Of a DNA stretch of 64,000 nucleotides, positions 14 to 58,545 are shown in pieces. Origin of the DNA: Candidatus Omnitrophota bacterium (GTDB lineage Bacteria; Omnitrophota; Gorgyraeia; Zapsychrales; Zapsychraceae); assembly GCA_023247445.1 (NCBI GenBank), contig JAHFGL010000003.1:14128-78127 (forward strand). The letters run 5' to 3'. Position 1 is the stretch's first letter; every line of letters begins with the position of its first letter. The notes under the pieces are model-generated. The model had not been told where the DNA came from, ran no database searches, and saw nothing but the letters and a program-made list of their open reading frames with translations. A program made the position numbers and the translations under genes.

Positions 14-766
14 GTGATGCTGGATCTCTCTCGGGGAAAAATGTTTCGAGACAACGAAATTGCCAAATTTAATAGTATTGGATTAGATGAGAAAAGAGTT
101 TCGGGGATTTTAGCAGGAACAGAGGCATTTGATTTGGACTCGGTTCAAGGGGATGTCTTCGGTTCTTTTGGATTTATCACTGATAATCAAGTTTTTCAGA
201 TGGAAGCGCCAAAAGAAGACGGCGATGATATTGTTGTCCGCGGTTTAGTCATGAGTTTGGAGAATGGAAGAATTAAAGTTGAGATGGTTGAGGGGCGAGG
301 GAATAGAAACAAACTATTGCAGGAAGATGATGAAGATGTTTTGGTCTATTCAGTTGTTGGCGATGGTTTTTACGCCGACGAAGCGCTTGTGACAACGAAA
401 CCAAGTGAAACAATGCAAGAATTTGAAGCTGCTTCTGCACCAGATAAGAAGACGAATTTAGGAGAGAAGAAGTACGGTGGTATCAATCTTAATCCGGCGC
501 TACTTGATCTTCAGATCAAACGCGATGGGCAGGGGATTCCACTACCGATGAATCAACAGCCGATTGAAAATATGCATATTGAAGGATTTTTACCGGTCTT
601 TATTAAACTCACGACGATTACCGATTTGCCGCTGATGCTAGGAATTAATATTCCGGCAGACAAGAAAGATGACGAGAAGACTGATATTAGTTTCAATGTA
701 AGTAGCTTGCCGGTTGAGTATCGTGAAGAGTTTTTGGCGAAAGAGTTGGAGTTGGTGGAAGTGTAG
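14..766 (+). CDS. hypothetical protein; may extend upstream of the window (no in-frame stop before nt 14)
   Basis: 750-nt ORF with no motif I recognise; GTG/ATG start at 14/17, reading frame open to the window edge. Confidence 0.35.
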   Translation: MMLDLSRGKMFRDNEIAKFNSIGLDEKRVSGILAGTEAFDLDSVQGDVFGSFGFITDNQVFQMEAPKEDGDDIVVRGLVMSLENGRIKVEMVEGRGNRNKLLQEDDEDVLVYSVVGDGFYADEALVTTKPSETMQEFEAASAPDKKTNLGEKKYGGINLNPALLDLQIKRDGQGIPLPMNQQPIENMHIEGFLPVFIKLTTITDLPLMLGINIPADKKDDEKTDISFNVSSLPVEYREEFLAKELELVEV

Positions 767-860
767 TTAGGGTATTAGGTGATTTGGTGATTAGGGACAG
801 GGGATTAGGTTAGTAGGATATTAGGGACTGAGAGTTAGCGGATTAGGGAATTAGGGACTG
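767..860. repeat. left arm of an inverted repeat flanking the four-helix-bundle gene (degenerate TTAGGGA/ATTAGGG-type units)
   Basis: repeated ttagggtattagg / gattagggaattagggactg units; their reverse complement recurs at 1271-1352 (cagtccctattcacccaataacc). Confidence 0.5.
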
Positions 861-865
861 AAAGG

Positions 866-1270
866 TTGCAAGAAAGGAGGATAGTGATGCCTACGTTTAA
901 AGATTTATGGATTTGGAAAGAATCTCATCAATTAATGCTTGAGATCCACGAGTTAGCTAAGAAGTTACCTGCCGAAGAAAAATTCAGAAAACGAGATCAA
1001 ATAGAAAGATCATCTTCTTCCATCGCTGATAATATTGCCGAAGGTTACGCGGCGTATTATTACAATGATAAGATAAAAACTTTCTACATTGCGCGTAAAG
1101 AAGTAGCAGAGACTCAAAATCACATTGAGGCTTTGGTAGGAAAGAATTATTTGGATAGAAAACAAGCTGATCTTTGGATTAATCAATATAATCGAATAAT
1201 TGCTGGTATTAATGGGTTAGTTGCTTATATTCGCGATAAAAGTCGAAGTGAAGCGCAAAAGAAAAGGTAA
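866..1270 (+). CDS. four-helix-bundle protein of the 23S rRNA intervening-sequence protein family
   Basis: 134 aa; KESHQL..EIHELAKKLP...SSSIADNIAEGY pattern typical of the TIGR02436-type IVS proteins; RBS aaggagg upstream. Confidence 0.75.
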   Translation: MQERRIVMPTFKDLWIWKESHQLMLEIHELAKKLPAEEKFRKRDQIERSSSSIADNIAEGYAAYYYNDKIKTFYIARKEVAETQNHIEALVGKNYLDRKQADLWINQYNRIIAGINGLVAYIRDKSRSEAQKKR

Positions 1271-1352
1271 TTTGGTTATTGGGTCCATCGACGTCCCTAT
1301 TCCCCTAATAATCTAATCACCAGTCCCTATTCACCCAATAACCTAATATCCT
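1271..1352. repeat. right arm of the inverted repeat flanking the four-helix-bundle gene
   Basis: tccctattcccctaataatctaatcaccagtccctattcacccaataacctaat is the reverse complement of the left-arm units. Confidence 0.5.
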
Positions 1353-1613: not shown

Positions 1614-3788
1614 TTGATGTTGTTTGCGCAAAACTCCAAAGATTCTTCATCCCCGTTTTCCCTTCCTGTTTTATTCTTCATCACGTTTCTCTTATGGATC
1701 TTTGCTTTTAAGGATTTTGTTTTTGACAAGATCACGCTAAGCTCGGATGCCTTGGCCTATTATGAACATTTTAAGGTTTTTACTGATGGTCTAAGGCGCG
1801 GGGTTTTCCCAATGTGGGATCCAACCTGGATCACAGGCATTCCAGAAGAATTCTTTTTGCGTCGGATGGGATCATTTAATCCCTTTATTTGGATTATTAT
1901 TATATTTAATAAAATTGGAATTCCTTACAACATTGCCTATCTTCTTTTCTTAAGTTGTTATTATTTTTTTGGCATGGTCGGATTCTATTTATTAGCCAAA
2001 CGCATAATAAAAGATTCTGCCATCGCTTTCTTGGCATATCTACTTCTGATGTTTTCTTCGCTGGGGACAAGAATGTTTGATTCCTATATTCTCCTTACCT
2101 TTGTCCCGATGGTCTGGTTTTTTTTCTTCTGCGTTGCCTTTTGTCAAAATCCGCAGCGGTTTTATTTCTTGGGCCTTATTTTTAGTCTGATGATTTTGTT
2201 TACAACCTACATCCCATTTTATTTTATAACTATCTTTTTAACATTCTTGATTTCTTTGGTGATCTTGTATTTTGCGCAATTAAAAGAGATCGCCGCAAAA
2301 GCGTTGTTTTTTATAAAGGGGAACAAAGGTTTTGTTATTTTGTGCTGTTTGTTCTTTTTCATATCTCTTTGGCCGGGCTGTTTATTTTATAAAGAAGCGC
2401 AGAAGGGGGAGATGGTATTTTTTGAGCGGCATTCGACCTCGAGCGTTTCAAACCAGGTCAGCGTTGGCATTGAAACTGTCACAAGCTGGGGAATCGAGGA
2501 AGATATTGCTTACGCGAGCGCCTTCACCGATTTGAAACGATTTAAGTTTGCCATTCTTTATATATCCTTTTTTGCCTATTTGATTTTTCTTTTGGGCATT
2601 ATTACTGATGTTAACAGAAAAATTCTGTTTCTTTTTGTCTGGGCGGGCCTGCTTATTCTAATAACGACGCCGCGTCTTAGTGGGATTTATGATTATCTTT
2701 ATCAACATGTTTTCTATTTTAAATATTTCCGGAATCTTCATTTCTTCCTGTGGCTAGTTTTACTTCCCATATTTATTCTTTTTTTATCTGGGCAATTAAA
2801 AAATTTATTATCTTTTCAACCTAAGACCAAAACCGGTCGAATTGGTTTTTTAACATTTATTACGTTAGTCCATGCTGGTTTTCTCTACTTTATCTATTCT
2901 CAGGGAAGCAATATCGCCAGCTCTTATGCAGTTGTCATTTTAAGTTGGTTGTTTCTAACGTTATATTTCTTGGGGCGGATTAAAACGTGTTATTTGCCCA
3001 TTATATTTTTGGTCATTGTGATTATCCAGCCGCTGGAGGTTTATCATTATTTATCGCGCAACTCTATCCCCAAGGTTAAAAGTTTTAAACATGTGTATGA
3101 ATCTGATTATTTGTTTCCCAGGATGATACAAACTGAAAATAAATTGATAGAAATGAAGCAAAGTTTTGCCCAGGAGATAAAGGGATTATCTCACTATGCT
3201 GAAAATAAAACGTCCAATTCTTACATTGGACTTAAGTGGATGAATCTTTTTAAGAATAATTTGAATTTAAAGATATTTGATGAATACTCGGCCTATAAGA
3301 TTGTTCTTTATGATCATGTCGAATGGATGAAAGATGACCAAGTTGATTTTGAGCGTCTGGGTAAGGCTATTGCCAACAGCGAAAACGTTGCGTTTATTTC
3401 TGAGTCGCCTCAGAAAGAGGGAGTGGGTGCTTTAGGATCATCAGCGCAAATTATTACAGCTGAATCTAAGGAGGTAAAGATTTTGAAATATGATTTTAAT
3501 GACGTGATATTAAAAACTAATCTCAATAAAGAGAAATTTTTAGTTTATAACGATAGCTATCATAGTGGTTGGCATGTGTTTATCGATGGGAAAGAGGCGC
3601 CCTTATTTCGAACGAATGTTGCCTTTAAAGGTGTTTGGGTGCCCGCGGGAGAACATCAGGTATGGTTTCGCTTTGGCACAGCGCTTGATTATTTTCGAAA
3701 TTATTTTCTTCTTATGATGTTTTATGCCGTTTTTATTTATTTATTATTTCTGGGAAAGAATTTGTATTCTCAAAAAGTGATTAATTAA
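1614..3788 (+). CDS. polytopic membrane protein, YfhO-like GT-C glycosyltransferase family (assignment tentative); paralog of 4713-6950
   Basis: 724 aa, many TM segments; C-terminal LVYNDSYHSGWHVFIDGKEAPLFRTNVAFKGVWVPAGEHQVWFRF resembles the YfhO C-terminal signature; about 60% identical by eye to the downstream copy. Confidence 0.45.
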   Translation: MMLFAQNSKDSSSPFSLPVLFFITFLLWIFAFKDFVFDKITLSSDALAYYEHFKVFTDGLRRGVFPMWDPTWITGIPEEFFLRRMGSFNPFIWIIIIFNKIGIPYNIAYLLFLSCYYFFGMVGFYLLAKRIIKDSAIAFLAYLLLMFSSLGTRMFDSYILLTFVPMVWFFFFCVAFCQNPQRFYFLGLIFSLMILFTTYIPFYFITIFLTFLISLVILYFAQLKEIAAKALFFIKGNKGFVILCCLFFFISLWPGCLFYKEAQKGEMVFFERHSTSSVSNQVSVGIETVTSWGIEEDIAYASAFTDLKRFKFAILYISFFAYLIFLLGIITDVNRKILFLFVWAGLLILITTPRLSGIYDYLYQHVFYFKYFRNLHFFLWLVLLPIFILFLSGQLKNLLSFQPKTKTGRIGFLTFITLVHAGFLYFIYSQGSNIASSYAVVILSWLFLTLYFLGRIKTCYLPIIFLVIVIIQPLEVYHYLSRNSIPKVKSFKHVYESDYLFPRMIQTENKLIEMKQSFAQEIKGLSHYAENKTSNSYIGLKWMNLFKNNLNLKIFDEYSAYKIVLYDHVEWMKDDQVDFERLGKAIANSENVAFISESPQKEGVGALGSSAQIITAESKEVKILKYDFNDVILKTNLNKEKFLVYNDSYHSGWHVFIDGKEAPLFRTNVAFKGVWVPAGEHQVWFRFGTALDYFRNYFLLMMFYAVFIYLLFLGKNLYSQKVIN

Positions 3789-6950: not shown

Positions 6951-7863
6951 ACCACAAATCAAATGGTTATTATTTCTTAATAGGGCGATTATTTTTTATC
7001 TTCTTTTATTTGTTGTCCTGGCGGTTTCTCTAAATCAAACCAGAACAAAATTAAAAGTTAATCTCTTGGCCCTTAATCGTTTAATGCCGTCTTTTGATTA
7101 TTTGGTTAGCTTTGAGGCAGGCGCGGCGCCTTTTAAGGCCAGTGAATTTGATAAATATGTCGACTACTATGAAAATTTTGTTAAATTCGTCCAGGATAGG
7201 CCAGAGGCGTATACGATGCTTGGGTTTTGTTATTATCATATGGGAAAAACAAAGAAGGCGATTTCATTTTATGAAAAGGCGATTAAGTTAGATCCTGATT
7301 ATTTTTGGCCTTATTACAATTTAGGATTAATTTATTTTAAAGAAGGGGATTTTGCGGGGGCAGTTAATTATCTTGGTAAGGCGGTTGATATCAGCCCAGA
7401 TTATTCTTTCAAACTTGTCCGCAATTCAAAACTTTATCGTCCCATTCAAGCGGTCAGTAGTGTTAATTCAGATTTTAAAGCTTTAAAAAAGATGAAGGTT
7501 TACTACACCTATTCTTATAATCTTTTGATTCTAAGTTATATTCAGATGGGAAATTTTCAGAAGGCTTTTGAGGCGGCCAATTTTGGGATTAATTCTAATT
7601 TTGGTCATCAAGATTTTCTTCATTATTATGCAGGGTTAGCCAATTTAAAAATGGGAAACCCTAAATTAGCCATTGTTTATTTTAGAGAATGTATAAACAA
7701 GAATAAGAATTATGTTGATGCTTACAAAGGGTTAGCCCAGGCGCTTATCGCGATGGGAGAAAAAGAGCGGGCGAAAGAGGTGACCAATGCGACCCCATTT
7801 CTATCCAAAGAAAATCCACAAGATATGTTTGACCCAAAGTTAATAAGGTTACAACTTTTTTAA
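6940..7863 (+). CDS. TPR-repeat protein with TM anchor; paralog of 3788-4708
   Basis: AYTMLGFCYYHMGKTKKAISFYEKAIKLDPDYFWPYYNLGLIYFKEGDFAGA. Confidence 0.6.
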   Translation: MKFKPQIKWLLFLNRAIIFYLLLFVVLAVSLNQTRTKLKVNLLALNRLMPSFDYLVSFEAGAAPFKASEFDKYVDYYENFVKFVQDRPEAYTMLGFCYYHMGKTKKAISFYEKAIKLDPDYFWPYYNLGLIYFKEGDFAGAVNYLGKAVDISPDYSFKLVRNSKLYRPIQAVSSVNSDFKALKKMKVYYTYSYNLLILSYIQMGNFQKAFEAANFGINSNFGHQDFLHYYAGLANLKMGNPKLAIVYFRECINKNKNYVDAYKGLAQALIAMGEKERAKEVTNATPFLSKENPQDMFDPKLIRLQLF

Positions 7864-18445: not shown

Positions 18446-18484
18446 GGAATAGGGTTTAGGGATCAGGGGTTAACTATTTAATCG

Positions 18485-19990
18485 TTATCCGCTGGTTTTA
18501 TCCATCCACAAAGCATAAATTACCCAGAAAACGACTGTCGGTAAGGCCGCGTATAAAATGCGGTGTAAGGTGACTTGTAGCCACCAATCGATGGGGAAGT
18601 ACGTATTGATGAAGTAGTAAAAAGTAATGACCGCCGTATAAGCGATAAAAAATAGAGGGAAAATAATTATACGGGGATTTAATAAATGCTTATTGGTGCC
18701 GATTAGAATGGCGATCAAAAGAAGCAAAATAACATTGTACCCGTGCGGTAAGCTCATCCATAAACCATTGAGCCCAGGTAAAATAATTGGCCCAAAACTA
18801 AAAAGAATGATACATAGCTTTAATATTATCCAGCGTTGATCGCTTAAGAGTAACCCCGCCACTAAAACCAACCATAAGCCATTCCAATTTGGACTGACAA
18901 TTTCTGCTAAATAAAACGATAAAATATATTCTAATCTAAATAAGCTGACAGGTTTTATTGTTGAAACAAGACCATTAATCATGGTGATGTTTTTTGGTGC
19001 ATAAAATCCATAGAAAATAATGGATGGAATAGAAGCGATGGCGCCGGCAATAAAAAATGTCTTTAAGATTTTCCATTTATCCTTTGCTGAATCTTTCCAG
19101 AAAATATAAGGCACGGCTAAGCATAGAATGATGAGAGCGGCAATCAAGGCTTCACCTTTTGTAAAGCTTAAGAAAGCTAAGAAAGTTCCGGCGAGTAAAG
19201 CGTAAATGGGATGGTGGGTTTCTTTTAATTCGATTAGGCAAAAGAAGCTGGCCAAAAGATAAAAGCTCACAACGATGTCGCAGTATTGACTCAAAGATAA
19301 TTTAATATAAAAAGGCATGCTTAAAATGACGAGCGCGGTAAGAAAAGAAAATATACTTTTTGTTTTGTGCCTGAGGGCGAAAGAAAGTAGTCCGATGGTT
19401 AAAAAGGTAAATAAGAAAGAAGTGAAAATGGATGCTTCGACATCAGGTTGGTTGATGAATGTCCAACCCCAGAGAATGGTGCAGGGCAGAAATAAGGGAT
19501 AGTGTGGGCTTGATCGCCATAAAATAGAAGTAAACATTCGCTTCCAATCATCACCGCTTAAAAATAGAAATTTTGCTTTGAGATTCCATACCGACCACGC
19601 ATCCCATCCTCCGTAGGCATAAAAATGGGCATGGATCCATAATGGTAAAGAGATGATAATTAAAAATAGAAATGGGTAGAGAGCTTTTTGGCTAAAAGTG
19701 TTTGGTGGGAAAATTGGTGATTTATCTTTGTTCCACTTTAGAATTTGGATAATGGTTAGCAAACAAAGAACGATTAAATTTCCACTAATGATAAACAGGC
19801 GATTAAATTGATTAAATAAAATAAAACTAGAGAAAACAATGCTTGAACTTATACCAATGCCTAATCCAGCGGCCAAGAAAAGATGAATTGAAGGTGGTAT
19901 CTTGTGTTCTTTAGACGAAAAAAGGTTGATCGCTAAATATCCAATCGTAAAGGAGATAAAAAATGGTAAGTAGACTAATAAGAGATTCAT
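18485..19990 (-). CDS. polytopic membrane protein; paralog of the N-terminal half of the 998-aa protein
   Basis: 501 aa; shared blocks LAAGLGIGISSSIVF/LALGLGLGFSSFITF and YGGWDAWSVWNLKAKFLF/YGEWDAWAMWNLKTKFLL. Confidence 0.5.
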   Translation of the reverse strand: MNLLLVYLPFFISFTIGYLAINLFSSKEHKIPPSIHLFLAAGLGIGISSSIVFSSFILFNQFNRLFIISGNLIVLCLLTIIQILKWNKDKSPIFPPNTFSQKALYPFLFLIIISLPLWIHAHFYAYGGWDAWSVWNLKAKFLFLSGDDWKRMFTSILWRSSPHYPLFLPCTILWGWTFINQPDVEASIFTSFLFTFLTIGLLSFALRHKTKSIFSFLTALVILSMPFYIKLSLSQYCDIVVSFYLLASFFCLIELKETHHPIYALLAGTFLAFLSFTKGEALIAALIILCLAVPYIFWKDSAKDKWKILKTFFIAGAIASIPSIIFYGFYAPKNITMINGLVSTIKPVSLFRLEYILSFYLAEIVSPNWNGLWLVLVAGLLLSDQRWIILKLCIILFSFGPIILPGLNGLWMSLPHGYNVILLLLIAILIGTNKHLLNPRIIIFPLFFIAYTAVITFYYFINTYFPIDWWLQVTLHRILYAALPTVVFWVIYALWMDKTSG

Positions 19991-20418: not shown

Positions 20419-23411
20419 GGATTTATTTGCGGATTTGGTTTGGTGGCTAGTAGGGTGTTCGCCACATCAAAATTCTTTAAAACTTTTAGATTATATTTTG
20501 CCAAAACAAAGAAATCTTGGAGCCAGTCTTTACTTTCAGGTAAATGGCTCTTCGGGGTTGTTAGATAATAATAATCAAATATTCCATTGGGTCCTTGGCG
20601 GTTAACCTGTTTTAGCCATGTCAGATGATATTTTTCGCGGTAGAAATTAATACTTGGTTCAAAAAGCCAGTTGATCCCAAGGCTCACAGAATTTTCATTT
20701 AAGTTCTTCGTTTTGGGCGCATCTTGCATAATAAATTTTACGGCGTCTTTGGTTGACGCATCGAACTGCCATTCATAAAAGTATTTGATGTTAGCACACC
20801 CAAGAAAGTGGACGAAATAAATTGTTGTTAAAGCATAGAAAAAAGTTTGGGCGGATAATCTAAGGGCTTTCTGAGGAATCGATTGGGCTACTCCTATCAA
20901 GATGACCACAACCATCATAAAAAGAAAAACAAAATAAAGGGCTGTTCTTCCCATAACAAACTTTGTCCCTAAAATTTTCCATTGAAGGAAGATTAAGGAT
21001 GCGCAAAGAAATAGGATTGTTAGGATTCCCATTAAGAATTTATCAGTTGATGAGAACGGTTTTTTCATTATCAGTAGTTGCGCTAGATGGGCTACGCTAA
21101 GAGTTAAAATAGATATGATCAGAAATTTAATGATTAAAATAATATTTAGTCCATCGATAGCTTTTGCGTAAAGGGTGCTATCAATTAAACTTGTTACAGT
21201 GTCCGTCCAGAATCCTTTGTCCCCGCCATAATAAAGTTCATGATAAGTTAATAATTTTTGTAGCGGGACAATGTAAAGAGCCCCCACCACAATTGAACTT
21301 AAGATAATAGAAGGAAAGAGGTTTTTTAGTAGACGTTTAAATATTTCTTTTTCGCGAAATGATTGCAAAAGTTCAAAGCCAAATAGAAACATGATGATAG
21401 CTAGATGAATATGGAGAAAGGCGAGGTTAGATAAAGTAGCCAGAACTAATAACCAAGAGCAAAGGATTAAATTTTTTCTGTAAAGAAGAATGTCATTTGT
21501 CATCAGGATTTTAAAAAAATAATATAAACCCAAAGCCAGAAATCCTAGGCCCAACGCATACCCTCGGGCGCAGGAAAATAAATCTAGCATATAAGGATTG
21601 CACGTCAGCAAAAGAAGTCCTGCGATAAGACTTGGTCCACGTAGAACGATCGAACAAATTTTATAAGCAGCAAACAGAAAAAGCGCATGACCGATCAAAG
21701 CCGGAATTCTTATCGCAAATTCTGACAATCCAAAACAATTGACTGAAATTTTAATAAGTAAACTATTGAGCAGATGGTTGTTTGATGGGTGCGGCTGACT
21801 AAAGGTTAATATTTGAAGAAATGAGGCCGAGGCATGACGCAGATATGTTAACGCTTCATCATGGGTGATCGATATGTTGTAAGCACGGATGAGCGTATAA
21901 ATAAATAATCCCGCCATGATGAGAAAGCAGATCCAGTGAGTAATTCTATTTCTGTCATCCTGAGCGTAGCGAAGGATCTCAGGATTCTTACGTGGCTTGA
22001 GATTTTTTGCCTCGCTCTTGGCAGGCTCAGAATGTTGGGGTGATAACTTTGTTGTTTGGTCTGACCAATAACAAAAAAATGATAGAAAGAGAATGGAGGG
22101 CAAAAGCTGCAGGTAAAGGCGCTCCAGTGACATTGACAGCCACCAATGGATATCGATATTGGTGTTGACCAGATAGATAAAGATTAGGATCGCGATGTAA
22201 GTAATGATGGAGAAGCTAATAATTTTATTTTCTTTATAAAATAATTTTGGAAATTTTAGGATGCCCAACAAAATAACCAATAACCAAATAAAGCTCCATC
22301 GTTTATCAATGATCTCGTTGAATACTGTTTTTTGAATGAGCAGAAATTTTTGGGCCTGTGTAATGTTTAGCTGAACTGCTTTTAAGCTGGGAAGAATATC
22401 TTCGTTGGGCGGCGCCAGGAATACTTTGAAGATGATCGTTGGCAATGCGGCAACGATTAATCCTATCAACATAAAGCGAATCAGGCTCCAACTTGTTTTC
22501 TTGCTTATCGTTTTATCAAATATTAGATAAAGTGTCGTGACGCTTGCCAAGATCCCCGTCATTACCATGCCTTCATTCTTGATGAAGGACAAAAATCCCA
22601 GGAATAGTCCATAAAGAATAGCCACGCGGTGATCTTTTAAATGCATCATGATGATCATTGTGACAAATGCGGCCAAAAGATAATACGCTAAGACAATATC
22701 GGCATATTGGGCCGTCGACCAAAAAATGAAATAAGGATGAGATAAAAGTAATAAGGAGGCAAAAATTCCAGCGGGCTTTAAATTAAGATGCTTTAAGGCC
22801 GCATAGACTAAAAGACAGGCGCTGACCGTAAATAAAAAAGACGTTATAAGCGGAATTGGAAAAAGATTGTTGGCGAAAAAGGAATAAATCCAAACATTAA
22901 CAAATGGTAAGAAAAGTGGGTAGTCGGGATGAGTATGCCAGTTTAGGCCTGATAAAATATCTTGCCAGGGCGTTTGGCTAAAGAGGAGAAACTTGGTTTT
23001 TAAATTCCACATCGCCCAGGCGTCCCATTCGCCGTAGGGATGTTTTTGGATAAGGAATAAGATTATTCCAGACAAGATAAGCCAGCAACAAGCAATTAGA
23101 ATATCTAATGGTTTAAGATTTTTTATCGATTTTTTAAATTGGTCAACGAGTGATGAGGAGCGCAACGACGAGAAATTAAGATAGATTAATAGAATTAAGA
23201 AAAGAAGATTGGCCGTAACAATGGCCAACGCATTAAATTGACGCAGGAATAAGAAAGAAAAGAATGTAATAAATGAGGAGAATCCTAATCCAAGGCCAAG
23301 GGCGAGTAAGAGATGAAGGCTTAATGAAATTGGTTTTGTATTTTTTAATAAAAAAGAAATGGCGAGGAATCCAAGGCAAAAAGAAATAAGGTAGGGGAAA
23401 AAATGGATCAT
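20415..23411 (-). CDS. large polytopic membrane protein: N-terminal module like 18485-19990, an RPE/MITE-encoded linker, and a C-terminal GT-C (PMT/ArnT-like) glycosyltransferase module
   Basis: 998 aa; C-half has ISITHDEALTYLRHA and NNHLLNSLL first-loop motifs typical of GT39/GT83; linker ...HSEPAKSEAKNLKPRKNPEILRYAQDD is encoded by the repeat at 21954-22035. Confidence 0.55.
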   Translation of the reverse strand: MIHFFPYLISFCLGFLAISFLLKNTKPISLSLHLLLALGLGLGFSSFITFFSFLFLRQFNALAIVTANLLFLILLIYLNFSSLRSSSLVDQFKKSIKNLKPLDILIACCWLILSGIILFLIQKHPYGEWDAWAMWNLKTKFLLFSQTPWQDILSGLNWHTHPDYPLFLPFVNVWIYSFFANNLFPIPLITSFLFTVSACLLVYAALKHLNLKPAGIFASLLLLSHPYFIFWSTAQYADIVLAYYLLAAFVTMIIMMHLKDHRVAILYGLFLGFLSFIKNEGMVMTGILASVTTLYLIFDKTISKKTSWSLIRFMLIGLIVAALPTIIFKVFLAPPNEDILPSLKAVQLNITQAQKFLLIQKTVFNEIIDKRWSFIWLLVILLGILKFPKLFYKENKIISFSIITYIAILIFIYLVNTNIDIHWWLSMSLERLYLQLLPSILFLSFFCYWSDQTTKLSPQHSEPAKSEAKNLKPRKNPEILRYAQDDRNRITHWICFLIMAGLFIYTLIRAYNISITHDEALTYLRHASASFLQILTFSQPHPSNNHLLNSLLIKISVNCFGLSEFAIRIPALIGHALFLFAAYKICSIVLRGPSLIAGLLLLTCNPYMLDLFSCARGYALGLGFLALGLYYFFKILMTNDILLYRKNLILCSWLLVLATLSNLAFLHIHLAIIMFLFGFELLQSFREKEIFKRLLKNLFPSIILSSIVVGALYIVPLQKLLTYHELYYGGDKGFWTDTVTSLIDSTLYAKAIDGLNIILIIKFLIISILTLSVAHLAQLLIMKKPFSSTDKFLMGILTILFLCASLIFLQWKILGTKFVMGRTALYFVFLFMMVVVILIGVAQSIPQKALRLSAQTFFYALTTIYFVHFLGCANIKYFYEWQFDASTKDAVKFIMQDAPKTKNLNENSVSLGINWLFEPSINFYREKYHLTWLKQVNRQGPNGIFDYYYLTTPKSHLPESKDWLQDFFVLAKYNLKVLKNFDVANTLLATKPNPQINP
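21954..22035 (-). mobile_element. MITE-like element, copy 2 (short, degenerate), translated in-frame within the 998-aa ORF
   Basis: gtcatcctgagcgtagcgaaggatctcagg...gcaggctcagaatg; minus-strand translation RYAQDD from the TIR. Confidence 0.55.
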
Positions 23412-38972: not shown

Positions 38973-39762
38973 AATTACCAGCCTCACTAATCCAAAAGTT
39001 AAAGAACTCGTTAAACTGCGCGAAGCGGCTCAGCGAAAGAAGTCGGGGGTCATTGTCGTTGAAGGATATCGTGAAATTGAGCGTGCTATTGAAGCGAAGG
39101 TGAACTTTAAGGAATTTTATATCTGTAAATATTTTGTTAAAACGTTAGCGCAAAAAGAAACGCTTAAGAAAATCATGGCGCTTAATGTCCCGATTTATGA
39201 GACAAGCAGCGAAGTGTATGAAAAAATTTCATATGGTGACCGCAATGAAGGATTGATGGCGATTGCTCAGCCAAAGTATTCATCATTCTTCGATTTGCCA
39301 TCGAAAGACGATTTGTTTATTCTGGTTATTGAGCAGGTTGAGAAGCCTGGAAATTTGGGCGCGATCCTGCGTACTGCTGATGGCGTGGGCGTTGATGGCA
39401 TCATCGTCTGTGATGCCAAAACGGATATTTATAATCCAAATGTGATTCGTTCAAGTTTGGGAACAATTTTTTCAACTAAAGTGGTTGTTAGTTCTGTTGC
39501 CCCAACTTTTGATTTCTTAAAGTCGAAGGGAGTCAAGATTTGTGCGACGAGTCCTGATGCCGATTTTATTTATTCCAAGGCTGATTTAAAAGCGCCGGTT
39601 GCCATTGTCGTTGGCAGTGAACAGGAGGGCTTAAGTCGATTTTGGTTAAGTAAAGCGGATTTAAAGGTAAGAATTCCAATGCGTGGGAAAGCTGATTCGC
39701 TTAATGTCTCGACATCAACGGCAATTTTGCTTTATGAAGCGCTGAGACAATCGTCATCCTGA
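38962..39762 (+). CDS. TrmH/SpoU family RNA methyltransferase; its stop codon lies in the MITE TIR
   Basis: LGAILRTADGVGVDGII and VVGSEQEGLS SPOUT motifs; last codons caa tcg tca tcc tga are the MITE TIR cgtcatcctga. Confidence 0.7.
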   Translation: MLDKITSLTNPKVKELVKLREAAQRKKSGVIVVEGYREIERAIEAKVNFKEFYICKYFVKTLAQKETLKKIMALNVPIYETSSEVYEKISYGDRNEGLMAIAQPKYSSFFDLPSKDDLFILVIEQVEKPGNLGAILRTADGVGVDGIIVCDAKTDIYNPNVIRSSLGTIFSTKVVVSSVAPTFDFLKSKGVKICATSPDADFIYSKADLKAPVAIVVGSEQEGLSRFWLSKADLKVRIPMRGKADSLNVSTSTAILLYEALRQSSS

Positions 39763-39900
39763 AGGAGCAAAGCGTACTGACTTTTCCATAATTTATATTT
39801 AGATGAAGTCAGTACGTACCAACTTCCTCTAAAATATTAAAGGACAGTTGGTGCGACTGAAGGATCTCTTAAGAGATCCTTCGCTTACGCTCAGGATGAC
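39752..39900 (+). mobile_element. MITE-like element, copy 4 (full length, same orientation as copy 1)
   Basis: cgtcatcctgaaggagcaaagcgtactgacttttccataatttatatttagatgaagtcagtacgtacc...gaaggatctcttaagagatccttcgcttacgctcaggatgacg. Confidence 0.75.
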
Positions 39901-42612: not shown

Positions 42613-42678
42613 GTCATCCTGAGGAACGCAGTGACGAAGGATCTCTTAAGAGATCCTTCGCTGGCGCTCAGGATTACG
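42613..42678 (+). mobile_element. MITE-like element, copy 5 (short form: TIR + Y palindrome + TIR)
   Basis: gtcatcctgaggaacgcagtgacgaaggatctcttaagagatccttcgctggcgctcaggattacg. Confidence 0.65.
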
Positions 42679-44997: not shown

Positions 44998-47900
44998 ATG
45001 TATATTTACAAGAAAAACCAAAACTCATGTGGTAGCCGCCGGCTTATTTCAACCGTCTTACTGATAGCCTTTGGATTGACCTCATTTTTGCCTCCCAATC
45101 TTAGCTGGGCGCAGGTTGTGCCCTTAACAGGACTCAATCTTCCTATTCCGGGAACGGTCATCAATTTAAGTCCCGCCTTTATTCCCGCGCATGTCACCGG
45201 CATTGCCATTCATCCCGACGATCCATTTAAATTCGATTTTATTATTGATACCGGTGATGATCATTTAGAAGGTGAGGCGTTTAAACAGGAATCGATGAAG
45301 CTGATTAAATATTTTATGGCCTCCCTAACGGTGCCGGAGAATCAGATGTGGGTTAATCTTTCGCCATATGAAAAGAATCGTATCATTGCGGATGGACTGG
45401 GGCAGACGGAGATGGGCCGCGACATGCTTGGCCAAGATTATATTTTGAAACAATTAACGGCATCTTTAATGTCACCTGAGAATGAATGGGGACAAAAGTT
45501 TTGGGATCGTGTTCATAAAGAAGTTAAAGAAAAATATGGCAACATTGATATTCCAACGGATACGTTTAACAAAATTTGGATTCTGCCGGATAAGGCGTCG
45601 GTTTATGTTCATGACAATCGCGCGTTTGTTGTTGAGAATCATTTAAAGGTGATGTTGGAGGAAGATTACGTGGCGCTTTCTAATAGTCATCCTGAAGGAG
45701 CGAATGCGACTGAAGGATCTCCGAAGAGATCCTTCGCATCAACTTTCCTTAATGGTTTTGAGAAGAAGTTGGTACGTACTGACTTCCTCCAAATTGAATT
45801 AAGGAAAAGTCAGTACGCTGCGCTCAGGATGACGGAGCCAATCAAAGAAATTTTAAAAGAAATTCTCCTTCCCGAAATCGAGAAGGAAGTTAACAACGGC
45901 AAGAATTTTGCCCAGCTGCGACAGATTTTTTATTCAATGATTTTAGCCACGTGGTATAAACAGAATTTGAAAAAGAGCTTGTTCACCAAAAATTACGCCA
46001 ATCAAAACAAGATTGAAGGAATCGACCTTCAAGATAAAAAAATCAGTGAGAAGATTTACAACCAATATTTAGAAGCCTTCCAAAAAGGTGTCTCCAATTT
46101 AATTAAAGAAGAGTATGATCCGCAAACTCAGGAAGTTATCCCGCGCAAATATTTCTCGGGAGGAGTTCAGGGAGTCGAAGACGCGGCGATCTTGACAAGT
46201 CTGCCTTCGAGTTGGATGGAAGCTCAAATAAATCGCGATCATGCGATGGTCACCGCCGGCATCGATCCTCTCGGCCCTCAAGCTTCCGATGAGGCGATGG
46301 TGACTTATGCCGAAGGAACAGATCAACAATACCTCAAGAGGCTGGATAAGATGTTTCGGGCAATTGCTGGTTCCGCCGATGTGGATGGTTCGGCTTATAA
46401 AGATTTTCAAAGAGGAGTTTCTCAATTAATAACAGATGGCGTGATCACGGGTTTAGTTGCAAGAAGGCAAGTTTGGGATTTTATGAAATCTGTGGCCCAA
46501 GGTGTTGCGTCAGGCGATCGGACAGAATTGCAACAACTGAGATTCCTCTTGAATTCTCCCGAGGAGATTACGTTATCTCATTTTATGAGAATAAGGATTC
46601 GAAAAGAAAAAACAAGTAAACGAATGATTAGAGTTGTTCAAAGAGTCCCTGGAATGCTTGCTCATTCCCAAGCGTTGTTGCAGGACATTGTGGGTAAAAT
46701 AAAACGTAATGAGCCGGTTAAAATATGTTTTGTCTGTAATATGAATGTTCACCGCAGTGCCGTCGCCCATGTCTTAGTAATGGATCAAGCTCAAAAATTA
46801 GGAAGGACCAATGTTGAGATTGTCTCTGGCGGGACATTTGATTCAAATGAACATTTAAATTCTAAATTAAGATCTGGATTCAAGAAAATTTTAGAGGCCA
46901 GGGGTGTTGACAGCGACATCATTAATCGATTTCGTACCAGAGATGTAACTAAAGAAGATTTAGAAGATTCTCAGTTAATTGTGATTGCAGAACCAATGAA
47001 CCTAGAGAGGTTGTCAGAGTTTGAAAATGAGGTTCCAGGGTTGTATGAGAAGATGATATTTTTTACATCGATTAATCCCGTCGTAGATGCCCAGCATCCG
47101 GATCATGTGATGCCAGATCCTTATGATTCAAGTAAGATATCAGCAGAAGGGTTGGTTGATTTAATAGAACAAGAAATAATTCCGCGGTTGTTTCCAACCG
47201 ACCCCGCCCTCCAGCCTTTGGCTGGAGAGGCCTCGGCATCCCGTAAGCGGGATGACCGGGCGATGTTGACTAAAACGGAACAAACTCCTCAAGCTCTGGT
47301 TGAAGATTTAAAACGCGCTGCTGCCGAGGATCCTGGCAATATTGTGGATGTTTTGTATGACCGTGGTTTTAGAAAACCGGATGAACCATTCAACGTGTAT
47401 CTTATGATAAAGAATCATAAAGGTCCGATCTTGGATATTAGAACTGGTGAGGAGTTGCAAAATTGGCCAGCCGAGCAGTTAGTCGGCCGTCAGTGGAGAA
47501 GGGCCGACGTTTATATTAGAAAAGATGACCCAAGAGGTTTGGGAGTTTTGGTGATCGATTCTGATAATATTTTGACCGCGCGCGAAAGTCATCAATTTAG
47601 AGAAAGAAATTGGCGGGATTTGGCTCAAAAAAGAGGACTGATTGTTTATACCGGAGTCAATGCCATCAATCGTGAGTTGATAACCGCGCATCGAATTTTA
47701 AAAGAAGACGGCACGATTGTTGAAAAGGAATATGGTGATTCACCGCCATTCGACTTAAAGGTCACAAAAGAGTCAATCCTGATACGTATTGGCGATGGTG
47801 TTTTTTTTATCGAGTTGGATGAGTCGATGCTGACATACTCTGAAGACCAATGGGATAAAGTCAATCAAACGTACGAGAGCCTTCGCAAATTAGCCCAGAG

Positions 47901-49578
47901 TATTAAAGATGATCTTGATGCAAAGTTAGGGCCTGGATTTGTTGAGGAGTTAACGGGGTTAGTTGATCGATTACCCGAAAATGAAACTCAGGCCAGAGAA
48001 AGGTTAGGCGAAGATGACGCAATGAAATTGTTGGAGGACACCAACCGATTAGCCAATCTTGCTTTTGTGACAATCGATCAAATTTTAACATCATCTCATG
48101 AAAAGATTACATCATTAGGTCTTGATAATATTCTTCAGTCTGATTTAGAAAGTCCAAGGTATCCGATAAAAGAAGGATTTCGCAGCTACGACATAATTCG
48201 TGATTTTACTGAAAAATTGGGCAAGGTTAAAGGGGCTATGGATGGAATGAGTTCTCGGAATCTTAGTCGAGATACAGTTTATGGAGAATTTAATAGTTGT
48301 AAGCTTTTCTCGTCAATGGCTTTAAAAAGAATTGTAGCATTTGTCAACTTATTGGATCATGTTGTTGATCTACAAAGCGAGTCCTTTGAGAAATTTAAAG
48401 AGGAGATAAAATCAAGTACCGTATCTTTTAGAGAATCAAAAAGTTTACCCGAGTATATTTATCGATATTTTTTAATCCCGTATCAAGAAGCTTTGGCAGA
48501 GCGAGAAGCCATTGCTGAACCTATTCCCGATGAGGCGCTGTTGGCTCACCCGGAAGATTTGGTTGGGGGAGAAATAAATTTAAGATATTTGCGACGGATT
48601 CAAAAAATTGTTAATTCCAGCAAGGCTGATACAAAAAAGATCGCCATGTATGTGGGGGCTGGGGCGGATATCAGTGCTGCGCTTCTAGCGATTGATGCGA
48701 CGGACTATATTTTTATCGATCAAATTCCATTTGATACGGATAAACGAAAGGTCAGCGCCAAGACATTGGCTCGCGACATGGAAATTTATTTCCATGACAA
48801 GATGGGCAAAGGATATGGCAATTATTTGGCGATGAAGTCGGTTGGTCGGATTCGGCCATTTTTTATAAAAGAATTAGAATTGTTAGGAATTGATCCTAAG
48901 GATGTTTCAATTAAAAAAGATAAAAATAATCCAAATGTTTTTAGAATTAGTTTTGAGTATAAAGGCCAGAGGAGAACGGTTACCTATGTTGGTAATGCGG
49001 ATGCGACAAGGCCAGCCAAATTCGCCTCGCTTATTAAACGTTTGGGCCGAGCTGATTTTCTAATGATTAGAGCCGGCAATTACAGTGAGCGCAATCCAAA
49101 ACCATTATTAACGCGGACTTTTGTTATGAAACATTTAAAACCATCAGGACATCTTATTGTAGATTCCCTCGATGGGTTGACGGCCAAGGATGGACTACGT
49201 GATTTAGTTGAGCAGAAGCATTTGCGTGATGCCGTTTTAACTAGACTGGAACGCGATGGGGCGGGGTTAGGGTATGGTGATCGTTACGCCCCGCAATCAT
49301 ATATTTATATAAACAATCTCGATGAGGCGCTAGTGACGGATAAAGCAGTGACTAGTGAAGTTCCTGGTGGGATTGATTTTAATCCTGCGAATATGAATTT
49401 CAATTCAAACGGCGATAAGATTCAAATCAACTTACCGATGGCAGATCCCGCGATGCTGGGAGTAGAATCACCCGTCCGTGGTTATCAACCGGTCATTATT
49501 GAAATCACTCCGATAACAAATTTTCCGCTATTGCTCGGACTTAAAGATGAGCACGTGACGCAGATTTCTTATAACTAA
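44998..49578 (+). CDS. giant secreted multidomain protein (1526 aa) with an embedded LMW protein-tyrosine-phosphatase-like domain and an in-frame MITE
   Basis: signal peptide ...FLPPNLSWA-QV; CX5R(S) P-loop VKICFVCNMNVHRSAVAH plus PDPYDS Asp loop at about aa 570-730; possible Rossmann-like MYVGAGADISAALLAIDATDYIFIDQ near the C-terminus. Confidence 0.65.
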   Translation: MYIYKKNQNSCGSRRLISTVLLIAFGLTSFLPPNLSWAQVVPLTGLNLPIPGTVINLSPAFIPAHVTGIAIHPDDPFKFDFIIDTGDDHLEGEAFKQESMKLIKYFMASLTVPENQMWVNLSPYEKNRIIADGLGQTEMGRDMLGQDYILKQLTASLMSPENEWGQKFWDRVHKEVKEKYGNIDIPTDTFNKIWILPDKASVYVHDNRAFVVENHLKVMLEEDYVALSNSHPEGANATEGSPKRSFASTFLNGFEKKLVRTDFLQIELRKSQYAALRMTEPIKEILKEILLPEIEKEVNNGKNFAQLRQIFYSMILATWYKQNLKKSLFTKNYANQNKIEGIDLQDKKISEKIYNQYLEAFQKGVSNLIKEEYDPQTQEVIPRKYFSGGVQGVEDAAILTSLPSSWMEAQINRDHAMVTAGIDPLGPQASDEAMVTYAEGTDQQYLKRLDKMFRAIAGSADVDGSAYKDFQRGVSQLITDGVITGLVARRQVWDFMKSVAQGVASGDRTELQQLRFLLNSPEEITLSHFMRIRIRKEKTSKRMIRVVQRVPGMLAHSQALLQDIVGKIKRNEPVKICFVCNMNVHRSAVAHVLVMDQAQKLGRTNVEIVSGGTFDSNEHLNSKLRSGFKKILEARGVDSDIINRFRTRDVTKEDLEDSQLIVIAEPMNLERLSEFENEVPGLYEKMIFFTSINPVVDAQHPDHVMPDPYDSSKISAEGLVDLIEQEIIPRLFPTDPALQPLAGEASASRKRDDRAMLTKTEQTPQALVEDLKRAAAEDPGNIVDVLYDRGFRKPDEPFNVYLMIKNHKGPILDIRTGEELQNWPAEQLVGRQWRRADVYIRKDDPRGLGVLVIDSDNILTARESHQFRERNWRDLAQKRGLIVYTGVNAINRELITAHRILKEDGTIVEKEYGDSPPFDLKVTKESILIRIGDGVFFIELDESMLTYSEDQWDKVNQTYESLRKLAQSIKDDLDAKLGPGFVEELTGLVDRLPENETQARERLGEDDAMKLLEDTNRLANLAFVTIDQILTSSHEKITSLGLDNILQSDLESPRYPIKEGFRSYDIIRDFTEKLGKVKGAMDGMSSRNLSRDTVYGEFNSCKLFSSMALKRIVAFVNLLDHVVDLQSESFEKFKEEIKSSTVSFRESKSLPEYIYRYFLIPYQEALAEREAIAEPIPDEALLAHPEDLVGGEINLRYLRRIQKIVNSSKADTKKIAMYVGAGADISAALLAIDATDYIFIDQIPFDTDKRKVSAKTLARDMEIYFHDKMGKGYGNYLAMKSVGRIRPFFIKELELLGIDPKDVSIKKDKNNPNVFRISFEYKGQRRTVTYVGNADATRPAKFASLIKRLGRADFLMIRAGNYSERNPKPLLTRTFVMKHLKPSGHLIVDSLDGLTAKDGLRDLVEQKHLRDAVLTRLERDGAGLGYGDRYAPQSYIYINNLDEALVTDKAVTSEVPGGIDFNPANMNFNSNGDKIQINLPMADPAMLGVESPVRGYQPVIIEITPITNFPLLLGLKDEHVTQISYN
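45686..45834 (-). mobile_element. MITE-like element, copy 6, full length and translated in-frame inside the giant ORF
   Basis: gtcatcctgaaggagcgaatgcgactgaaggatctccgaagagatccttcgc...ggtacgtactgacttcctccaaattgaattaaggaaaagtcagtacgctgcgctcaggatgacg encodes SHPEGANATEGSPKRSFASTFLNGFEKKLVRTDFLQIELRKSQYAALRMTE. Confidence 0.7.
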
Positions 49579-49601: not shown

Positions 49602-49681
49602 GTCATCCTGAGGAACGAAGTGACGAAGGATCTCCGATTATTTTAAGTACTTTGAGATTCTTCGCTTCGCTCAGAATGACG
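49602..49681 (+). mobile_element. MITE-like element, copy 7 (short form)
   Basis: gtcatcctgaggaacgaagtgacgaaggatctccgatta...gagattcttcgcttcgctcagaatgacg. Confidence 0.65.
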
Positions 49682-58474: not shown

Positions 58475-58545
58475 TGCCCGGTGGTGTAATGGTAACACAG
58501 CAGAATTTGGATCTGCTTTTCCAGGTTCGAATCCTGGCTGGGCAG
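58475..58545 (+). tRNA. tRNA-Gln (anticodon UUG), CCA not encoded
   Basis: cloverleaf by hand: acceptor TGCCCGG/CTGGGCA (U1-A72, as in bacterial tRNA-Gln), D-stem GTGT/ACAC, anticodon stem GCAGA/TCTGC with loop ATTTGGA, T-arm CCAGG-TTCGAAT-CCTGG, discriminator G. Confidence 0.8.

Follow-up and report, generated by a model that had tools for sequence, protein, structure and literature searches.

Why would a gene of the 23S rRNA intervening sequence (IVS) protein family reside in the loop of a long hairpin between two ordinary protein-coding genes? The question is raised by a small four-helix-bundle (4HB) gene and its flanking repeats, together referred to here as the cassette, in a 64,000-nucleotide stretch of a Candidatus Omnitrophota genome (GCA_023247445.1, contig JAHFGL010000003.1, positions 14,128 to 78,127 of the forward strand; hereafter the window, with coordinates counted from its first base). 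Since the early 1990s, 23S rRNA IVSs bearing an open reading frame (ORF) have to our knowledge lacked an explanation, and no function is known for the protein family that they encode. An initial annotation, made from the sequence alone, had described the gene as a 23S-IVS-type 4HB gene that retains a stem-loop architecture in a protein-coding context, with no rRNA nearby. Rfam at gathering thresholds indeed finds no rRNA in the 64 kb, the only hit being a tRNA (58475-58545), and we consider it close to certain that the gene is enclosed by a hairpin of inverted repeat arrays and that this architecture is general among its relatives.

Judged by its profile scores, the window protein is a clear member of the TIGR02436/PF05635 family, reaching 100.2 bits against PF05635 (cut-off 33.8) and 99 bits against TIGR02436 (cut-off 24), as the initial annotation had proposed. 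It matches four-helix-bundle families only, with no match to Y1 (IS200-like) transposases, and no second 4HB gene was found within the 64-kb window. The reading frame ending at 1270 was also correctly recognized, but its proposed start at TTG 866 (134 aa) is less well placed than ATG 887, which is preceded by GGAGG at 876-880 and is likely the true start; the resulting 127-aa form is the version held in the public database (P0001) and fits the family size of ~110-135 aa. The nearest solved relatives in a phmmer search are 2GSC (XCC0516, E 2.6e-6) and 2RLD (E 1.6e-5). Identity with Avd, the protein of diversity-generating retroelements (DGRs) that shares the Pfam clan and fold family of the window protein, was rejected: the match is weak and remains below the family cut-offs (NF033474, 22.9 bits, cut-off 80; PF22296, 20.4 bits, E 7e-4, cut-off 40), and a profile search of the genes adjoining the 4HB gene found no reverse transcriptase domain.

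The flanks of the gene are predicted to pair over most of their length. Two arms of 60 nt each (769-828 and 1293-1352) are 82% complementary in a computed alignment, and in the minimum free energy fold of 760-1360 they are joined by 50 predicted base pairs, 2-3 of which are G·U (z = -3.9). The hairpin formed by the arms alone has a dG of -78 kcal/mol, compared with -43 +/- 5 kcal/mol when the right arm is shuffled, and the arms align with a score of 65, whereas 560 random control positions give a 99th percentile of 24 and reach 49 at most. These two controls rule out a chance origin of the complementarity. The arms had initially been drawn wider, as 767-860 and 1271-1352; this holds for the two 60-nt segments but not for 829-858, which has no partner, nor for 1271-1290, which is oriented like the left arm. 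Nor is the repeat unit a 7-mer of the TTAGGGA type, as first described: the lag-8 autocorrelation (0.62 in the left and 0.50 in the right arm) identifies it as the 8-nt ATTAGGNN. A G-quadruplex reading of the arms was considered weak, as most units have no more than GG, and long loops lie between the GGG runs of the window arm. In addition, a 1131-bp contig from another sample (L001) is identical to the window across the upstream gene, left arm, and 4HB gene to ~10 nt past the stop codon, but from ~1010 to 1131 it diverges fully from window position 1281 onward (GAGGTAGGTAGGTGG...) and the right arm is missing. Either the assembly joined unrelated sequences at the repeat, making this contig a chimera, or the contig represents a genuine rearrangement.

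To place the cassette in a wider context, we compared 51 loci encoding relatives of the window protein (50-71% amino acid identity) on Genome Taxonomy Database (GTDB) contigs sampled at one genome per species, of which 47 were usable. These loci (L numbers below) come from Planctomycetota, Omnitrophota, Margulisiibacteriota, WOR-3, Aminicenantes, Elusimicrobia, Deltaproteobacteria, Stahlbacteria, and one genome of the candidate phyla radiation (CPR), representing about ten phyla. Of the 47 loci, 38 have flanks whose inverted repeat scores higher than the 99th percentile of the control, with a purine-rich array, mostly of ATCAGGNN, upstream of the 4HB gene and its complement downstream (in array form, NNATCAGG and CCTGATNN, respectively). 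Both flanks share the 8-nt period (0.44 vs. a background of 0.265), and each arm comprises 3-8 units in a fixed 8-nt register, with lineage variants of the core such as ATTAGG, ATCCGG, ATCGGG, ATTCGG/ATTTGG, ATCAAGG, and ATTAAGG. The polarity of the arrays relative to the gene is fixed, with the purine-rich strand 5' and its complement 3': the upstream flank has 3.4 ATNNGG units per locus in sense vs. 0.2 on the opposite strand, and the downstream flank 4.1 in antisense vs. 0.96 on the opposite strand.

The same layout extends beyond the immediate relatives. Distant 4HB paralogs (~30-34% identity) in the same loci are flanked in the matching way by other 8-nt units (GACTATCA in L025 and L038, CTTGAANC in L016, and a GAATA type in L009), and three 4HB genes on plasmids of cultured cyanobacteria (Nostoc, Leptolyngbya) carry AGCAGGGG upstream and CCCCTGCT downstream. 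Thus, the stem-loop around an ORF that the initial annotation had inferred for the window is typical of the family. One 4HB subfamily alone comprises more than 7,900 clusters at 90% identity, and protein searches returned no named rRNA-borne homologues, only unnamed or “four helix bundle protein” metagenomic matches. At one locus (L012), ORF-less hairpins of 8-nt units are present at 16-92, 1116-1207, and 1590-1761, including one of another unit family (four copies of ACTGGAGT, a loop, and three copies of ACTCCAAT), and each flank of the 4HB gene is itself a self-complementary hairpin. The literature we searched does not describe 4HB genes in repeat hairpins outside rRNA, although a source beyond this search may do so.

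Arms and gene are likely inherited as one unit, as indicated by comparisons between loci. Ten Planctomycetota loci are syntenic with flanking proteins ~65-90% identical, which implies long vertical persistence of the cassette at one site. At the non-syntenic loci L034 and L017, the cassettes are 79-85% identical at the nucleotide level over ~430-527 bp, with the homology ending at the outer arm ends and no similarity between the flanks, even as protein; relatives of the window protein at 70-78% amino acid identity are found in four unrelated gene neighbourhoods. The cassette thus acts as a discrete unit, in agreement with the initial suggestion of an IVS-like cassette. Synonymous changes greatly exceed non-synonymous ones in six of eight pairs (e.g. 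43:7 and 38:7, counting single-step differences), so that the 4HB gene, as read from these substitutions, is under purifying selection, and 2 of the 47 4HB genes contain premature stops. ORF decay is seen in L047, L033, and L056, the last being an internal-deletion derivative at a site orthologous to L032, L041, and L047; what it retains is the left arm, the beginning of the ORF (about 60 nt), and the terminal part of the right arm.

The cassette is also closely fitted into its host gene clusters. The upstream gene, the 4HB gene, and the downstream gene of the window are all on the + strand, and in 33 of 44 related loci the 4HB cassette has the same orientation as both neighbours. Across loci, the median distance is 8 nt from the upstream stop codon to the left arm (1 nt in the window) and 22 nt from the right arm to the downstream ATG; with such spacings, the hairpin covers the entire intergenic gap. 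Its base would thus place the two host genes within normal operon spacing. Upstream of the 4HB gene, no promoter-like or terminator-like site was found in the window cassette. Two cassettes may occupy successive gaps of one operon, as in L025 and L038 (hdrA / 4HB / mvhD / 4HB) and in L009 (fabF-like / 4HB' / fabF / 4HB / serS). In L006-L011, L018, L021, L022, and L045 the right arm ends with ...CCTAATAC, ~1-5 nt before the downstream ATG (serS, syntenic group), and a comparable ...CCTAAY-AYAATG junction is present at the right-arm end of the non-syntenic L034 and L017. The start context of the downstream gene may therefore be provided by the end of the cassette.

How such a cassette is maintained can be explained in several ways. 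With somewhat less than even confidence, we favour an IVS-type passenger: transcribed together with the host genes, it would be looped out by the hairpin it carries and cut by RNase III. Under this explanation, a functional 4HB gene with its own ribosome-binding site would be nested in the loop of a ~60-bp hairpin whose arms are inverted arrays of a degenerate 8-nt repeat. As the cassette directly follows the upstream stop codon, is co-oriented with its neighbours, and has no recognisable promoter, it would most likely be read through from the host operon. Pairing of the arms could then loop the passenger out and draw the flanking host sequences together, so that the insertion would cost the host little. 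RNase III might subsequently cut the stem and free a monocistronic passenger mRNA, by analogy with ORF-bearing 23S rRNA IVSs. The locus comparison shows this unit persisting at a site for long periods, occasionally turning up at new ones, and able to decay by ORF loss to array remnants.

The model for this explanation is the rRNA IVS of Leptospira and of Coxiella burnetii (helix 45), which encodes a protein of the same family (S23p, PF05635). The Coxiella 23S IVS has its S23p ORF looped out by an inverted-repeat stem that is cut by RNase III, and tandem GACAGAT heptamers precede the start codon (PMC4990558). The window cassette shares the position of the ORF in the loop of a long stem made of inverted repeats at the ends of the element, short tandem repeats in the 5' part of the element, a tendency of the ORF to decay, and an ORF oriented in the sense of the host transcript, as far as co-transcription can be deduced from the common strand of the cassette and its neighbours. 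In contrast, its host is the spacer between genes for a giant protein and a YfhO-like protein instead of an rRNA helix, and its repeat period is 8 nt, compared to 7 nt in the rRNA IVS. The window gene also has a strong Shine-Dalgarno sequence in the loop and is subject to purifying selection, while translation of the Coxiella ORF is improbable. Excision by RNase III has been demonstrated for the rRNA IVS and is proposed for the window cassette by analogy only. Although the other structural features are shared, the element is not an rRNA IVS, as it lacks the defining location within rRNA.

Several observations weigh against this explanation. If the hairpin acted as RNA, arm mismatches compatible with G·U pairing would be expected on the sense strand, but no sense excess was observed (66 sense vs. 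79 antisense). The sense hairpin was also no more stable, with the sense strand better in 13 loci and the antisense strand in 25 (p = 0.06). With both tests negative, nothing shows selection on an RNA rather than on a DNA inverted repeat. Pairing is also not obligatory, since the left arm has been lost in two close relatives of the window protein (L173 and L179) and for XCC0516 the published repeat table lists an array on the 5' side only. Furthermore, the core hexamer ATCAGG is kept across loci of 33-55% GC, and most arm mismatches fall in the variable 2-nt spacers, often with A·A or G·A opposed, so that the conserved hexamer and variable spacer look more like a recognised motif than like a helix free to vary. 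The unit type nevertheless covaries between the two arms (Spearman rho 0.82, p 7e-8), and base composition was rejected as the driver of unit type (rho -0.06 between unit GC and locus GC). Taken together, the aligned arms show constraint on both complementarity and motif, in a pattern compatible with action at either the RNA or the DNA level.

Arrays that lack a 4HB gene further complicate the picture. An unbiased scan of metagenome contigs for ATCAGGNNATCAGGNNATCAGG yielded at least 120 loci, and among the matches listed ATCAGG-type arrays are common without any ORF. Of ~110 testable arrays listed, none had a 4HB homologue nearby, although the profile used did find the paralogs in positive controls. 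The initial association of the arms with 4HB genes therefore does not hold outside the window: the arms belong to a general class of hairpin and array repeats, of which 4HB genes are an occasional cargo. Nearly all 4HB genes of the subfamily sit in such hairpins, and most such hairpins are empty. Among the matches listed, a complementary partner is present on the inner side of 31 of 127 arrays but on the outer side of only 2 of 121, the loops are mostly 6-146 nt long and ORF-less, and the ORF-less hairpins are built like the cassette arms, with three units, a GTAGTGG centre, and three further units. Neither these hairpins nor solo arrays show a clear polarity toward flanking genes, albeit in small numbers, which also counts against the favoured explanation. 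Within the window, the related repeat fragment that had been noted after greA is present as a short solo G-type array without a partner, and no other 8-nt arrays were found beyond it and the cassette.

A different cargo was identified in L091, where 540-1248 contains a GxxExxY gene (TIGR04256, 137 bits; PD-(D/E)XK-like) in the 618-nt loop of an ATCAGG-array hairpin, making GxxExxY a second cargo family of this hairpin type. In L153, ATCAGG arrays (~7163-7184 and ~7733-7754) and a hairpin are located inside a long ORF with a product resembling a HypF-type maturation protein, in frame as ...VIRKSGNQEIRESDN..., and the hairpin repeat may be tolerated within a coding region.

These findings raise the possibility of a mobile element acting at the DNA level, with the inverted arrays as its functional ends (as a cruciform or single-stranded DNA hairpin) and RNA pairing incidental. 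It would be moved by a recombinase in trans or with the help of the 4HB protein, and ORF-less hairpins would be its non-autonomous copies, as REPINs (hairpins of repetitive extragenic palindromic, REP, sequences) are to genes of REP-associated tyrosine transposases (RAYTs) and MITEs (miniature transposable elements with inverted repeats) to transposons. We consider this unlikely, although it would account for the end of homology at the outer arm ends of non-syntenic copies, the unrelated gene contexts of close relatives, the abundance of ORF-less hairpins with identical fine structure among the matches listed, the second cargo with its nuclease fold, and the failure of two tests to detect a sense-strand RNA signal. 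However, there is no transposase or recombinase within or adjoining the cassette, and we know of no catalytic activity of the 4HB fold. The stable position in the ten syntenic Planctomycetota loci, despite the divergence of their flanking proteins, indicates that movement would be very rare, the one ORF-less intermediate that was caught (L056) is an internal deletion at the same site and not a product of transposition, and no cassette copies were found in the phage and viral collections searched. The comparison with REP/REPIN-RAYT systems is similarly incomplete. Both have one gene between inverted short repeats. REP/REPIN systems add many ORF-less intergenic hairpins of the same repeat; for the cassette, hairpins of the same class are abundant in metagenomes, and the window itself contributes one solo fragment. 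RAYTs, however, are Y1 (IS200-like) transposases, whereas the window protein is a small helical bundle without a known catalytic motif, and REPs are single ~35-nt palindromes, whereas the window arms are tandem arrays of 8-nt units.

The empty hairpins could also mean that the arms belong to the target and not to the cassette, i.e. that they are generic, slippage-prone intergenic repeats or hairpins, akin to the G-rich heptamers of Xanthomonas and Nostoc, in the loops of which 4HB and GxxExxY genes land preferentially, which would also explain 4HB genes at the tips of 23S rRNA helices. Besides the abundance of ORF-less arrays and hairpins and the co-occurrence of several unit families in one locus (L012, L025), this fits the 186 GGGAATC arrays reported for X. 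campestris, of which 70 are in convergent pairs, and the GGGAATC array at the start of XCC0516 (PMC4692102 and its supplementary table). It is at odds with the fixed polarity of the arrays relative to the 4HB gene, as ORF-less hairpins show no clear one toward their neighbours, and with the fine structure of the arms, which non-syntenic copies share at gene-level identity. Moreover, none of the sites orthologous to an occupied hairpin was found to hold an empty one, apart from a single case (L056) that is a deletion derivative, and we regard such preferential landing as improbable.

The Xanthomonas arrays deserve a closer comparison. The G-rich heptamers of Xanthomonas (GGGAATC) and Nostoc/Anabaena (GGGGAYT) have been described as quadruplex-forming simple sequence repeats (SSRs; Rehm et al. 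2015, PMC4692102). They are related to the arrays described here in motif and layout: a short G-rich unit is repeated in intergenic DNA, in single arrays or in convergent pairs that can fold into stem-loops, and the Xanthomonas motif ATCGGGA resembles ATCAGGNN and ATTAGGGA. The Xanthomonas array GGGAATCGGGAGTGGAGAATCGGGAATC even abuts the 4HB gene XCC0516 and has a matching AGTGG-type centre. However, their unit is 7 nt long instead of the 8 nt of the window cassette, the runs of GGG that a canonical G-quadruplex requires are mostly missing from ATCAGG and ATTAGG units, and the SSR study did not connect its arrays to 4HB genes or IVSs (PMC4692102).

A conserved hexamer core with a variable 2-nt spacer, in a fixed 8-nt register of 3-8 units per arm and independent of genome GC, is also what would be expected if the arrays were RNA or DNA binding sites for a ring-shaped 4HB oligomer, with one 8-nt unit per subunit, in the way that TRAP reads spaced GAG triplets. 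In that case, the 4HB protein would either control the cassette that encodes it or act on every array of the genome. The unit differs by 4HB subfamily (GACTATCA, CTTGAANC, AGCAGGGG, and the GAATA type), which is consistent with this idea, and the family member Avd binds RNA and a reverse transcriptase in DGRs. The structures 2GSC and 2RLD were deposited with five chains each, and XCC0516 has been described as a homopentameric toroid (PMC4990558). Still, proteins that are 70-78% identical are found in arms with different cores (ATTAGG, ATCCGG, ATCGGG, ATCAGG), so that any recognition would be loose or fast-evolving, and arrays far outnumber 4HB genes, with ~110 of the matches listed having none nearby. 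Overall, arrays serving as binding sites for the ring seem to us a doubtful explanation.

More broadly, 4HB proteins and short-unit arrays or hairpins might constitute one widespread two-component system, in which units of 7-8 nt, in RNA or single-stranded DNA, would be recognised by the ring protein, which would process, maintain, or spread the arrays. This proposal, to which we assign a low probability, would cover ORF-less hairpins, 23S rRNA IVSs, and the G-rich SSR arrays known from Xanthomonas and Nostoc alike.

The features of the window are listed in Table 1. The size of the upstream protein was taken from the gene calls on the source contig, and its C-terminal 250 aa matched no Pfam or NCBIfam domain. 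For the YfhO-like protein encoded downstream, the named homologues are from Candidatus Omnitrophota; next to its nearest homologue (57% identity), the gene list shows a nucleotidyltransferase, an uncharacterised gene, and an AAA ATPase instead of the cassette.

Table 1. Cassette, neighbouring genes, and related repeat fragment in the window.
Feature	Position	Strand	Basis or remarks
Upstream gene, 3' end (C-terminus of a giant protein, >3828 aa)	14..766	+	Stop codon TAG 764-766; left arm starts at the adjoining base
Left (5') arm, purine-rich degenerate 8-nt units ATTAGGNN / ATTTGGNN, centre GGGACAGGGG	767..828	+	769-828 pairs with 1293-1352
Third 30-nt copy of the left array (829-858), TGAGAGTTAGCGGATTAGGGAATTAGGGAC, at the 5' edge of the loop	829..860	+	No complementary partner on the right side
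Shine-Dalgarno sequence AAAGGAGG	873..880	+	6 nt before ATG 887; in the loop, outside the stem; read from the sequence
4HB coding sequence, 127 aa, TIGR02436 / PF05635 (23S rRNA IVS protein family)	887..1270	+	Profile scores; stop codon TAA 1268-1270
G-type unit remnant TTTGGTTATTGGGTCC...	1271..1290	+	Repeat comparison; oriented like the left arm and not complementary to it
Right (3') arm, pyrimidine-rich array, GTCCCTATTCCCCTAATAATCTAATCACCA x2	1293..1352	+	Reverse complement of 769-828
Downstream gene, YfhO-like	1614..3788	+	Profile match
Solo G-type array fragment GGGAATAGGGTTTAGGGATCAGGGGTTAAC	18446..18478	+	In the 39-nt gap between convergent greA and ORF 18485-19990; no partner, no 4HB gene

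The window additionally contains a second, unrelated repeat family. Its members are nested hairpins with an outer stem GTCATYCTGAG...CTCAGRATGAC and an inner stem CGAAGGATCTC...GAGATCCTTCG, and the longer forms have an additional ACTGACTT/AAGTCAGT module; copies are located at 1438-1594, 21954-22040, 39753-39900, 42613-42677, 45686-45833, and 49602-49680. The motif is matched 11 times in the window vs. 1.2 times expected. Since the first copy, within a region of strongly predicted folding (1425-1610, z = -8.2), directly follows the 4HB cassette, the 847-bp gap between the two host genes holds two different hairpin elements. The copy at 45686-45833 (GTCATCCTGAG element) lies inside an uninterrupted ORF of 1526 codons (44998-49578) without introducing a stop, its peptide reading ...SNSHPEGANATEGSPKRSFAS..., and represents either an in-frame insertion or the fusion of two genes by the ORF call. 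The sole Pfam match of this ORF is LMWPc, at residues 576-726.

The occurrence of these cassettes in many phyla implies that the combination of a hairpin and an ORF is not peculiar to rRNA and that the normal habitat of these genes is between ordinary genes. As the arms are of the same class as the short-unit arrays of Xanthomonas and Nostoc, the findings tie together IVSs, the 4HB protein family, and G-rich arrays of 7-8 nt. Nostoc punctiforme (NPUN_RS36250 on plasmid pNPUN02) and X. campestris (XCC0516) are cultured, tractable carriers in which processing of the hairpin, binding by the protein, and effects on neighbouring genes could be tested. If true, the two-component proposal would assign a role to a protein family of very large size and, in addition, to repeats of three classes that have so far gone unexplained.

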